Below, piece by piece: positions 17,536-23,366 of a stretch of 64,000 bases of DNA; the first letter of the stretch is position 1; every line of letters starts with the position of its first letter. The notes under the pieces were generated by a model. That model did no database searches, was not told where the DNA came from, and worked only from the letters and a program-made list of their open reading frames with translations. A program made the translations under genes and the position numbers. The DNA is taken from the NCBI RefSeq assembly GCF_056712565.1, contig NZ_CM160072.1. One strand, 5' to 3'.

Positions 17536-17622
17536 AAGTCGAATCAGGGCTGAAGTGGCACACTGAATTTGGCCACCTGAACAGAGGTGATATGCTCACC
17601 TCAGAACAACACAGGTGCTCCA

Positions 17623-17895
17623 ATGAAAAAAAGAAATTTCAGCGCAGAGTTTAAACGCGAATCCGCTCAACTGGTTGTTGACCAGAAATACACGGTGGCA
17701 GATGCCGCGAAAGCTATGGATGTTGGCCTTTCCACAATGACAAGATGGGTCAAACAACTGCGTGATGAGCGTCAGGGCAAAACACCAAAAGCCTCTCCGA
17801 TAACACCAGAACAAATCGAAATACGTAAGCTGAGGAAAAAGCTACAACGCATTGAAATGGAGAATGAAATATTAAAAAGGCTACCGCGCTCTTGA
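17623..17895 (+). CDS. insN: IS911 OrfA (InsN) with altered C-terminus
   Basis: [46 protein letters not shown]...; ends ...[11 protein letters not shown] because the A-run at 17874-17878 has 5 A instead of the recalled 6. Confidence 0.75.
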
Positions 17896-17950
17896 TGTCA
17901 GACTCCCTGAACAGTTCTCGATAATCGGGAAACTCAGAGCGCATTATCCT

Positions 17951-18797
17951 GTGGTCACACTCTGCCATGTGTTCGGGGTTCATCGCAGCAGCTACAGATA
18001 CTGGAAAAACCGTCCTGAAAAACCAGACGGCAGACGGGCTGTATTACGCAGTCAGGTACTTGAGCTACATGGCATCAGCCACGGTTCGGCCGGAGCAAGA
18101 AGCATCGCCACAATGGCAACCCGGAGAGGCTACCAGATGGGACGCTGGCTTGCTGGCAGGCTCATGAAAGAGCTGGGGCTGGTCAGCTGTCAGCAGCCGA
18201 CTCACCGGTATAAACGTGGTGGTCATGAACATGTTGCTATCCCTAACTACCTTGAAAGGCAGTTCGCCGTGACCGAGCCAAATCAGGTGTGGTGCGGTGA
18301 TGTGACCTATATCTGGAGGGGTAAGCGCTGGGCGTACCTCGCCGTTGTTCTCGACCTGTTCGCAAGAAAACCAGTGGGCTGGGCCATGTCGTTCTCGCCG
18401 GACAGCAGGCTCACCATGAAAGCGCTGGAAATGGCATGGGAAACCCGTGGTAAGCCCGGCGGGGTGATGTTCCACAGCGATCAGGGCAGTCATTATACGA
18501 GCAGGCAGTTCCGGCAGTTATTGTGGCGATACCAGATCAGACAGAGTATGAGCCGGCGCGGAAACTGCAGGGATAACAGCCCAATGGAACGCTTCTTCAG
18601 GAGTCTGAAGAACGAATGGATGCCGGTGGTGGGTTACGTAAGCTTCAGCGAGGCAGCTCACGCCATAACGGACTATATCGTTGGATATTACAGCGCACTA
18701 AGACCGCACGAATATAACGGTGGGTTACCCCAAACGAATCGGAAAATCGATACTGGAAAAACTCTAACGCGGTGGCCAGTTTTTGTTGACCACTTCA
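17951..18797 (+). pseudogene. insO: IS911 OrfB (InsO) transposase, frame-shifted near its 3' end and no longer linked to orfA by a -1 slippery site
   Basis: DDE transposase domain (…[12 protein letters not shown]…[10 protein letters not shown]…); 1-bp deletion at about 18727 (GGTTACC-CC versus GGTTACCACC in copy 2) makes the ORF read through the IS end to 18901. Confidence 0.7.
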
Positions 18798-19137
18798 AGA
18801 GAAAAGAACCGATGAAGGTGGCCAGTACATTTTGTGTGGTGACGTCTTCAACAACTAAACGCGTAGCTCTGGGAGTCACATTAGTAGTGGCTGAACCGTA
18901 GGCTGTGACCATGATACTCAGCGAAAATGTGGTCACTGCCAGCATACTCGATGCCAGTATGTTCAGAATGTTATCGACTGCTTCCGCACCAACCTTCACG
19001 GAAACCGACTCAGGTATCATTGATTTAAAAAGAATTGATAAAAGGGCCGTTATTATCGCGACAATTGCGAATAACGTTGCCCTGAACCATAGTTTTTTAA
19101 TTGTCTGCTTCAGCATCCATTTCCAGCGTGAAATCAT
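18798..19137 (-). pseudogene. N-terminal fragment of a membrane protein gene truncated by the IS911 insertion
   Basis: Minus-strand ORF MISRWKWMLKQTIKKLWFRATLFAIVAIITALLSILF... with 2-3 TM segments runs into the IS911 right end. Confidence 0.5.
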
Positions 19138-19199
19138 TCTGCATTCCCTCATATTGCGGCCGAGATAATAATTGCCGCCCCCAGGACGGCATGTTGCTA

Positions 19200-21203: not shown

Positions 21204-21350
21204 TTATTCCATTAATTAAATTCGCACTGGATAGAAGGTACTACCTCTCACAAAGTAGCAAAGTTCAACTGGCTATGCGGCGTTAATCGGAATGCATGGT
21301 GGAATGTTGAGGTGTACTGGCAATAGCGGACACTACCATTTGTTCTTTTT

Positions 21351-22169
21351 TTAAGCAGCCATCTGATGATATTTTTCCCTGAAGGCTGCCGGGGAGATAT
21401 TCCCCAGACGAGAGTGACGACGCTGACGATTGTAGAAAATCTCAATGTATTCCCGTATTACTGAGATGGCTTCATCCCGGTTATTAAAACGATAGTGGCT
21501 CAGGCTCTCATTTTTCAGCGTTCCCCAGAAGCTTTCCATCGGAGCGTTGTCGTAACAGTTACCTTTACGCGACATTGATGTTTTCAGACCAAACTGCTCC
21601 TGTATGACCCGGTAATCGTATGCGCAGTACTGTGAACCTCGATCAGAGTGGTGGATTAGCCCGGCAGGTGGGCGCTGGCTCCTGAGCGCCATAAACAGGG
21701 CTTTACCTGTCAGCTCTTTTGTCATGCGCTCTCCCATGGCGTAGCCGACAATTTCGCACGTATAAACATCTTTGATGCCAGCGAGGTACAACCATCCCTC
21801 CTGTGTGGCAACATACGTCAGGTCCGCCACCCAGACCTGATTTGGTGCTGTAGGAGCGAACGTCTGGTTCAGCAGATTTGGCGCAACTGGCAGATTGTGG
21901 TTCGAGTTCGTAGTCGCTCTGAACTTGCGTTTCTGCTTACAGCGTAGCCTTAGCTCCTTACGAAGACGTGCCAGTCGGTCACGACCAACGATGATGCCAT
22001 TCTCTGCCAGCTCCGTCTGGAGCCGCCGGGTTCCATATGTTTCGCGAGTGCGGATATGTGCCACCTTAATCTCCAGTTTTAGCCGCTCATCACTTTGTTT
22101 TCTGTCTGAGGGTTCATGCTGTACCCAGTTGTAATAACCGCTCCTGGATACACCAAATACCTGACACAT
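21351..22169 (-). CDS. IS3-family (IS600-like) transposase OrfB
   Basis: 272 aa with DDE motifs (…NQVWVADLTYV…HHSDRGSQYCA…). Confidence 0.8.
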   Translation of the reverse strand: MCQVFGVSRSGYYNWVQHEPSDRKQSDERLKLEIKVAHIRTRETYGTRRLQTELAENGIIVGRDRLARLRKELRLRCKQKRKFRATTNSNHNLPVAPNLLNQTFAPTAPNQVWVADLTYVATQEGWLYLAGIKDVYTCEIVGYAMGERMTKELTGKALFMALRSQRPPAGLIHHSDRGSQYCAYDYRVIQEQFGLKTSMSRKGNCYDNAPMESFWGTLKNESLSHYRFNNRDEAISVIREYIEIFYNRQRRHSRLGNISPAAFREKYHQMAA

Positions 22170-22204
22170 CGCTTCAATGGGAAATTGTTGTCGCCATTGT
22201 TCGA

Positions 22205-22507
22205 TTAACGCGTATTTTTCAGCGACTCCTGTGCAAAATCTACAGTTGCTTTTTTTAATATATCTCGCTCAAGGCGAGCTTCATTTAACGCCTTACGCAG
22301 TTGTAGAATTTCAGATTCCAGTTCAGCCACCGTGCGGGAACCAGGAGTACCGAGCCCTTTTCTGGCGGCGGTAACCCATTGTCCTAAAGTGCCTTCAGGA
22401 AGAGATAATCGGGAAGCGCCTTCACTGATCGAAAGTTGATTTTCAAGAACCGTTCTGACAGCTTCGGCTTTGAACTTTTTAGAGTAACGTTGGGTTTTTC
22501 TGCTCAT
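22205..22507 (-). CDS. IS3-family (IS600-like) OrfA, HTH protein
   Basis: 100 aa, MSRKTQRYSKKFKAEAVRTVLENQLSISEGASRLSLPEGTLGQWV…, leucine-zipper C-terminus. Confidence 0.8.
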   Translation of the reverse strand: MSRKTQRYSKKFKAEAVRTVLENQLSISEGASRLSLPEGTLGQWVTAARKGLGTPGSRTVAELESEILQLRKALNEARLERDILKKATVDFAQESLKNTR

Positions 22508-22572
22508 TATTAGCTCCTTCTGATGCCATTCTATTTCAGGAAGGAGTGTCCGTTAAACTCAGGCTACCTCAG

Positions 22573-23366
22573 GAAAAACCGTCCTGAAAAACCAGACGGC
22601 AGACGGGCTGTATTACGCAGTCAGGTACTTGAGCTACATGGCATCAGCCACGGTTCGGCCGGAGCAAGAAGCATCGCCACAATGGCAACCCGGAGAGGCT
22701 ACCAGATGGGACGCTGGCTTGCTGGCAGGCTCATGAAAGAGCTGGGGCTGGTCAGCTGTCAGCAGCCGACTCACCGGTATAAACGTGGTGGTCATGAACA
22801 TGTTGCTATCCCTAACTACCTTGAAAGGCAGTTCGCCGTGACCGAGCCAAATCAGGTGTGGTGCGGTGATGTGACCTATATCTGGACGGGTAAGCGCTGG
22901 GCGTACCTCGCCGTTGTTCTCGACCTGTTCGCAAGAAAACCAGTGGGCTGGGCCATGTCGTTCTCGCCGGACAGCAGGCTTACCATGAAAGCACTGGAAA
23001 TGGCATGGGAAACCCGTGGTAAGCCCGTCGGGGTGATGTTCCAAGCGATCAAGGCAGTCATTATACGAGCAGGCAGTTCCGGCAGTTACTGTGGCGATAC
23101 CGGATCAGGCAGAGTATGAGTCGGCGTGGAAACTGCTGGGATAACAGCCCAATGGAGCGCTTCTTCAGGAGTCTGAAGAACGAATGGGTGCCAGCGACGG
23201 GCTATGTAAGCTTCAGCGATGCAGCTCACGCAATAACGGACTATATCGTTGGATATTACAGCGCACTAAGACCGCACGAATATAATGGTGGGTTACCACC
23301 AAACGAATCAGAAAACCGATACTGGAAAAACTCTAACGCGGAGGCCAGTTTTAGTTGACCACAACA
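22573..23366 (+). mobile_element. 5'-truncated second copy of IS911 (3' about 800 bp), abutting IS600; orfB frame-shifted
   Basis: Near-identical to 18002..18797 of copy 1; begins exactly at the IS600 end; right end GGCCAGTTTTAGTTGACCACAACA; orfB split into ORFs 22523..23119 and 23116..23358. Confidence 0.75.

Follow-up and report, generated by a model that had tools for sequence, protein, structure and literature searches.

A chromosomal betU locus in the Escherichia coli leuX island, probably a trimmed mobile cassette, lies between two defective IS911 copies

We analysed a 64,000-nucleotide stretch of DNA (NCBI RefSeq assembly GCF_056712565.1, contig NZ_CM160072.1; hereafter the window) in which a gene for a BCCT-family transporter lies among insertion sequences (ISs). 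Judged by its sequence, this gene is betU, an intact copy of an already characterised transporter gene. The region around it is the chromosomal betU locus of the Escherichia coli leuX (KpLE2-type) island, between nanXY-yjhDE and yjhV-fecEDCBA. We consider it very probable that, taken as a whole, the locus is a leuX-island betU derived from a trimmed mobile cassette, that its two IS911 copies form a recombination substrate, and that K-12 lost the gene through a deletion adjacent to an IS30. The anatomy of the locus, the sequence identity of the transporter to BetU, the variants in the population and their junctions were established here, and the betaine transport function is taken from the literature. 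The layout was drawn from a map of open reading frames (ORFs), a repeat search, Pfam scans and a RefSeq genome identical over positions 17000-24000, and comprises the following features (window coordinates; PGAP, Prokaryotic Genome Annotation Pipeline).

6832..6916, + strand: tRNA-Leu(CAA) gene leuX, found by ARAGORN, attachment site of the betU-bearing island
17332..17535, + strand: yjhE-like fragment of an MFS transporter gene, comprising its 3' end (PF07690 match; 'MFS transporter' in PGAP)
17551..18797, + strand: IS911 copy 1, 1247 bp, defective (ORF map, Pfam, PGAP and alignment)
18798..19152, - strand: N-terminal fragment of a DUF2254 gene, about 113-117 codons (PF10011; a PGAP pseudogene without its C-terminus)
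19173..19191, - strand: GC-rich terminator-like hairpin just past the betU stop codon (consensus match only)
19200..21197, - strand: betU, intact BCCT-family transporter gene, 665 aa (PF02028; identity to Tn6062 BetU)
21198..21307, - strand: remnant of native betU upstream DNA, about 105-110 bp (homology to plasmid copies ends at 21306, where IS600 begins)
21308..22571, - strand: complete IS600, 1264 bp (ORF map, Pfam, PGAP)
22572..23366, + strand: IS911-like copy 2, equivalent to IS911 positions 453-1250, 5'-truncated at the IS600 end
23441..23698, + strand: yjhV-like ORF of the right-hand flank, between IS911 copy 2 and fecE

The transporter ORF encodes 667 aa when read from the ATG at 21203 and 665 aa from position 21197, the start chosen by PGAP. 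Its product matched PF02028 over the full profile (positions 1-485 of 485; 661 bits against a cut-off of 27; E 1e-198) and scored 540 bits on TIGR00842, for which the cut-off is 407. Both models place it in the BCCT family, and its nearest solved structures are likewise BCCT transporters. No inactivating mutations were seen, bearing out the original prediction, made from the letters of the window, of an apparently intact 667-aa BCCT transporter. That prediction had called it a second betT-like gene and had not recognised it as one already named and characterised. Holt et al. (2011, PMC3139670) identified betU as the transporter gene of Tn6062, an element named on IncHI1 (PST6) plasmids, and reported that a cloned Tn6062 two-gene fragment (the DUF2254 gene plus betU) enables growth of S. 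Typhi at 0.8 M NaCl. As a stand-in for the Tn6062 plasmid we used an IncHI1 plasmid with an IS1-flanked cassette and mapped the published cloning primers onto it, where they bracket exactly the DUF2254 gene and betU. The window protein is identical to the BetU so bracketed at 663 of 665 residues (99.7%; 98.9% at the DNA level), and we assign the window gene to betU because of this match, which is to a named copy tested for osmoprotection. The exact window sequence is the commonest betU allele and was found on 884 contigs.

Holt et al. (PMC3139670) present betU as an uptake system for glycine betaine and proline betaine that was discovered in E. coli from pyelonephritis, and a 2026 paper (PMC13300293) names BetU as one more glycine-betaine importer found in such isolates. 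The protein, a distant paralogue of the choline transporter BetT, would accordingly act as a BCCT secondary transporter for glycine betaine and proline betaine, whose uptake shields the cell when osmolality is high. Two points weigh against this identification. Our link to BetU runs through Holt et al. and the identity to Tn6062 rather than through the HU734 sequence. In addition, the protein passed the NCBIfam subfamily model NF007399, 'choline BCCT transporter BetT' (751.3 bits against 695), and missed NF047988, the equivalog for glycine betaine uptake BCCT transporters (592.5 bits against 650), and because of these two outcomes several RefSeq records bear the PGAP name 'choline BCCT transporter BetT'. 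These scores, together with an alignment to K-12 BetT from end to end, C-terminal cytoplasmic domain included, would be compatible with a second choline transporter, a BetT isozyme, in place of a betaine importer. We regard that possibility as improbable. Identity to BetT is only 42%, NF007399 defines a subfamily rather than an equivalog group, no betIBA genes adjoin the window betU, the substrates given for BetU in the papers just cited are betaines, and the near-identical Tn6062 copy gives salt tolerance in LB (PMC3139670). The BetT label derives from homology and is at odds with the substrates that have been published. Names across RefSeq and PGAP are also inconsistent, alternating between 'BCCT family transporter' and 'choline BCCT transporter BetT', and neither BetU nor its betaine substrates are mentioned in the source names of the protein cluster. 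The original prediction had suggested that the gene might confer osmoprotectant or choline uptake; the first part agrees with what is published on BetU, and the second is neither what the literature reports nor favoured by the distance from BetT.

The betU gene does not travel alone. The fragment at 18798..19152, described in the original prediction as a truncated membrane-protein gene, is indeed the N-terminal part of a DUF2254 gene, matching PF10011 at positions 3-104 of 368 before it is cut off by IS911 copy 1. On plasmids, this gene stands beside betU at full length (425-431 aa). We found the cassette of DUF2254 gene and betU on 1,527 plasmids at 95-99% identity, mostly conjugative Klebsiella plasmids (1,260 from Klebsiella), in several plasmid contexts, among them an IncHI1B-typed Salmonella plasmid on which it forms an IS1-flanked unit. 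We propose that a mobile two-gene cassette, which also travels on enterobacterial plasmids, for example as Tn6062, brought betU in, and that the cassette was trimmed in the window chromosome, where IS911 would have cut the DUF2254 gene and IS600 lies 110 bp upstream of betU. Because the pair is conserved as a unit on the 1,527 plasmids, its distribution suggests the uncharacterised DUF2254 protein as a partner of BetU. The window's chromosomal copy has lost three quarters of this possible functional partner.

We then considered whether the ISs around betU could themselves move it. IS911 copy 1 has both terminal inverted repeats, from TGAAGTGG to CCACTTCA, and the coordinates and full length originally given for it hold. 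Its slippery motif is A5G (the copy on the enterotoxigenic E. coli plasmid p948 has A6G), and therefore orfB lies at +1, not -1, relative to orfA. One more nucleotide is missing at IS position 1177, so that the orfB frame runs out of the element; this deletion and two substitutions are private to the window's copy 1, as judged against copy 1 of strain CE0011b. PGAP labels the element 'frameshifted', and we conclude that copy 1 is full length but a pseudogene. Copy 2 lacks positions 1-452 and abuts the terminal ...CCTCA of IS600 directly. The original prediction of a 5'-truncated IS911 in the same orientation, beginning exactly at the IS600 end, was accurate to within one nucleotide (22573 as predicted, 22572 as found). 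In copy 2, orfB has lost one nucleotide and the right tip reads AACA instead of TTCA; PGAP labels the copy ISEc52-like, and its sequence is identical to that of K-12 'IS911B-1'. Neither copy combines an A6G motif joining orfA to orfB with an intact orfB. The two copies are direct repeats 4,569 bp apart, identical over IS positions 453-861 save for a private single-nucleotide polymorphism (SNP) at 768. Past position 861 there are 29 differences (about 8% divergence), and the 3' part of copy 2 resembles an ISEc52-like variant on p948. IS911 and ISEc52-like sequences are mosaic, and plasmid pTB402 has a truncated copy with a matching breakpoint pattern (IS911-like to about 861, then ISEc52-like).

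The third element, noted originally as IS600-like, is a complete IS600. Both ends are present (TGAGGTGTACTGG... and ...AGGCTACCTCA), its ORFs of 100 and 272 aa (orfA and orfB, both intact) carry HTH_Tnp_1 and rve domains, and PGAP annotates an intact programmed-frameshift transposase. Target-site duplications were sought around all three IS elements in the window and none was found: the triplets flanking IS911 copy 1 are GGC on the left and AGA on the right, and those flanking IS600 are TGT versus GGA. Every junction is therefore secondary, formed by insertion of one IS into another, by deletion or by recombination. Given that betU is mobile elsewhere (in the IS1-flanked Tn6062, on many plasmids and as a prophage copy), the series IS911-DUF2254'-betU-IS600(-IS911') might be taken for an active composite transposon that moves betU. 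We hold this to be very unlikely, since the IS types differ between the two sides, each IS911 copy has defects and IS600 has truncated one of them, no target-site duplication surrounds the whole unit (GGC ... GAC), and the IS911/IS600-flanked arrangement occupies one chromosomal site in every fetched genome carrying it. Rather than an active transposon, the structure would be a recombination substrate lying between two transposition-dead direct copies of IS911.

To place the locus in the E. coli population we surveyed 5,426 complete genomes. betU was present in 1,958 of them (36%), with 1,545 records reaching at least 99% identity and another 414 near 93%; BL21(DE3) has the gene and K-12 does not. 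The original prediction had proposed a comparison of presence and absence across leuX islands; an identical 7,001-bp arrangement occurs in 993 genomes spanning several lineages, and the segment is precisely absent from ST95-32. The prediction had also allowed that the segment might be an assembly artefact of repeated IS911 sequence. The presence of repeats, and nothing more, speaks for an artefact, and the chance of one is negligible, as the same 7,001 bp recur in 993 independently assembled genomes and the junctions are shared with K-12 MG1655. The records at about 93% DNA identity (~414) constitute a second betU allele. An example on the PK8566 chromosome (3660-6998 of the fetched locus, L014) has a full-length DUF2254 gene and lies inside a lambdoid (Rac/Qin-like) prophage remnant beside IS2.

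Homologous recombination across the ~409 bp common to both IS911 copies would remove the 4,569-bp unit, betU included, and leave one hybrid IS911. We built the corresponding synthetic recombinant (flank, copy 1 to position 752, copy 2 from 753, flank) and found that it matched end to end, in one piece and at 100%, in at least 16 genomes, ST95-32, ACN001 and CE0021a among them; in some other genomes the match was interrupted at IS911 761/762 by a group II intron of 2.27 kb. ST95-32 lacks exactly the 4,569-bp repeat unit and has kept one hybrid IS911, and set against the window it shows 8 mismatches over 31.9 kb rightward (99.96% identical) and is near-identical leftward. The single hybrid element has no target-site duplication (GGC vs GAC), as expected for a recombinant of two insertions. 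We think it likely that the betU-less single-IS911 genomes arose by deletion rather than by acquisition in the opposite direction, a polarity that we infer. Of the two outcomes originally foreseen for the IS911 repeats, deletion is thus borne out by genomes with the predicted hybrid. Amplification is not, as the predicted tandem-duplication junction (IS600, then IS911 453-1250 with the copy-1 tail, then DUF2254') had no one-piece match.

The opposite polarity would make the single hybrid IS911 between yjhE and yjhV ancestral, with the betU segment inserted into it by homologous recombination and the betU-less genomes never having had betU. Several observations weigh in this direction and against deletion. 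At least three backgrounds have the single-IS state: ST95-32, ACN001, whose core is only 98.4% identical, and CE0021a, which has another integration context. Furthermore, a mosaic IS911/ISEc52 element with a matching join exists independently on plasmid pTB402, and for these two reasons the single hybrid element could be old. We nevertheless consider an ancestral single element unlikely. It lacks the target-site duplication, ST95-32 is near-isogenic with betU-bearing genomes, the betU-bearing state, with 993 genomes in several lineages, far outnumbers the single-IS state, and K-12 and EC1, described below, show a two-copy state older than the K-12 scar. The hypothetical precursor, IS600 within a single IS911 and no betU, had no one-piece match in the 5,426 genomes, the top matches being window-type loci assembled from several pieces. 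Loss by deletion is the polarity that we favour.

The group II intron (ltrA, 2,270 bp) at IS911 761/762 was seen at 2762-5031 of fetched locus L010, at 6832-9101 of L011 and also in L013, the EC1 locus. It occurs in single-IS911 loci and in copy 2 of betU loci, never in copy 1 among the loci examined, a placement that may reflect site-specific retrohoming into IS911. We considered whether the intron could mark which way the IS911 x IS911 event ran, and found it uninformative, as it is present in both single-IS and two-copy states.

A different scar marks the corresponding place in K-12 MG1655, at 4507125-4509801 (9126-11802 of the fetched locus, L002). There, IS911 positions 1-334 are followed by IS30D, then by IS600 positions 1-327, and then by IS911 453-1250. 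Strain EC1 (NZ_CP058574.1) has a window-type locus that has kept betU and carries an IS30 within IS600 (L013 6746-7966), and the IS30/IS600 junction is shared between EC1 and K-12 with one mismatch in 1,857 bp. Such IS30-bearing loci of the EC1 type came up when the tandem-duplication junction was searched for. Taking away from the EC1 type the group II intron in copy 2 and the 4,363 bp between the other IS30 end and IS911 position 334 gives the K-12 arrangement. EC1 is an apparent surviving intermediate of the K-12 loss. In the K-12 lineage, IS30 would have landed in IS600 and then deleted outward through betU into IS911 copy 1. To the left of the EC1 IS30 are seven bases (ACGCTGT) that simple insertion into IS600 does not explain. 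From these junctions, the loss of betU from K-12 appears to be a classic IS-adjacent (IS30) deletion, by a route other than recombination between IS911 copies. Likewise, the K-12 'insO'/IS911B pseudogene, annotated as one gene in three fragments, appears to join pieces of two IS911 copies because the IS30-adjacent deletion fused them.

The trimming of the cassette also bears on how betU may be expressed. IS600 is co-oriented with betU and its orfB stop lies 148 bp upstream, so transcription of betU by read-through from IS600 is possible. About 110 bp of native DNA is kept upstream of betU here, versus about 70 bp in Tn6062. A simple sigma-70 scan of this ~110-bp remnant found no promoter on the minus (coding) strand, which counts against our explanation of the locus, and the source of betU transcription is something we infer rather than show. 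Together, these observations make it somewhat more probable than an even chance that the recurrent presence and absence of betU is driven by dead ISs, with at least two independent routes of loss (RecA-type recombination between the IS911 relics and IS30-adjacent deletion), a K-12 insO that is a fused scar, and betU expression possibly supplied by IS600 read-through.

The wider setting is as originally proposed. leuX, followed by an integrase gene, is annotated likewise in ST95-32 and ACN001, and the gene order nanX-nanY-ythA-yjhD-yjhE ... yjhV-fecEDCBA-fecRI is that of K-12 KpLE2. The yjhE-like fragment ends at its own stop codon 15 nt before IS911 copy 1, and K-12 has a yjhE pseudogene annotated at the corresponding place. 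An Rfam scan of 16500-24500 gave no match. Island segments 9859-18793 and 22572-37144 are mostly 99.4-99.98% identical between the window and ACN001, and the core adjoining the island (idn genes, leuX, integrase) is only 98.4% identical; the higher identity of the island than of the core points to a recent horizontal spread of this part of the island, or to a sweep. Further along, a 1064-aa ORF at 42571-45765 appears open in the window; ST95-32 has there an Ag43 autotransporter pseudogene with an internal stop.

The occurrence of betU in a common, IS-rich context is already known, and the only mildly new points are our reconstruction of how the K-12 scar formed and the inconsistency in annotation. 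The gene is an accessory osmoprotectant transporter tied to uropathogenic E. coli and, as Tn6062, to a globally dominant multidrug-resistant typhoid plasmid, and the RefSeq name 'choline BCCT transporter BetT' is misleading for it. K-12 would be a natural betU deletion strain, with an annotated insO that merges two IS911 copies. The direct IS911 repeats would make betU unstable, which matters where betU serves as a marker or where strains are compared for osmotolerance.

BetU is said to have been described originally by Ly, Henderson, Lu, Culham and Wood in 2004, in J Bacteriol 186:296, from uropathogenic E. coli; a polymerase chain reaction survey in that work reportedly found betU in about one third, flanked by putative insertion sequences. 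The window protein resembles that BetU as a BCCT protein of about 665 aa encoded by a strain-variable E. coli gene, and no difference between them is established. With BetT, the choline:H+ symporter of K-12, it shares the BCCT family, the long C-terminal domain and a passing NF007399 score; it differs in its 42% identity, in being unlinked to betIBA, and in reported substrates that are betaines, not choline. The K-12 KpLE2 locus (yjhE-insO(IS911B)-IS30D-insM(IS600)-IS911B-1-yjhV) has the same flanks, the same IS911 1-334 with A5G save for one SNP, and an IS600/IS911 position-453 junction and IS911 copy 2 identical to those of the window, but lacks IS911 from 335 to its end, DUF2254', betU and IS600 from 328 to its end, and has IS30D at the breakpoint. 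Tn6062 carries like cargo, with a near-identical betU beside its DUF2254 neighbour. Its flanks are IS1, its DUF2254 gene is full length and it resides on a conjugative plasmid, whereas the window holds betU on the chromosome between IS911 and IS600, next to a truncated DUF2254 gene.

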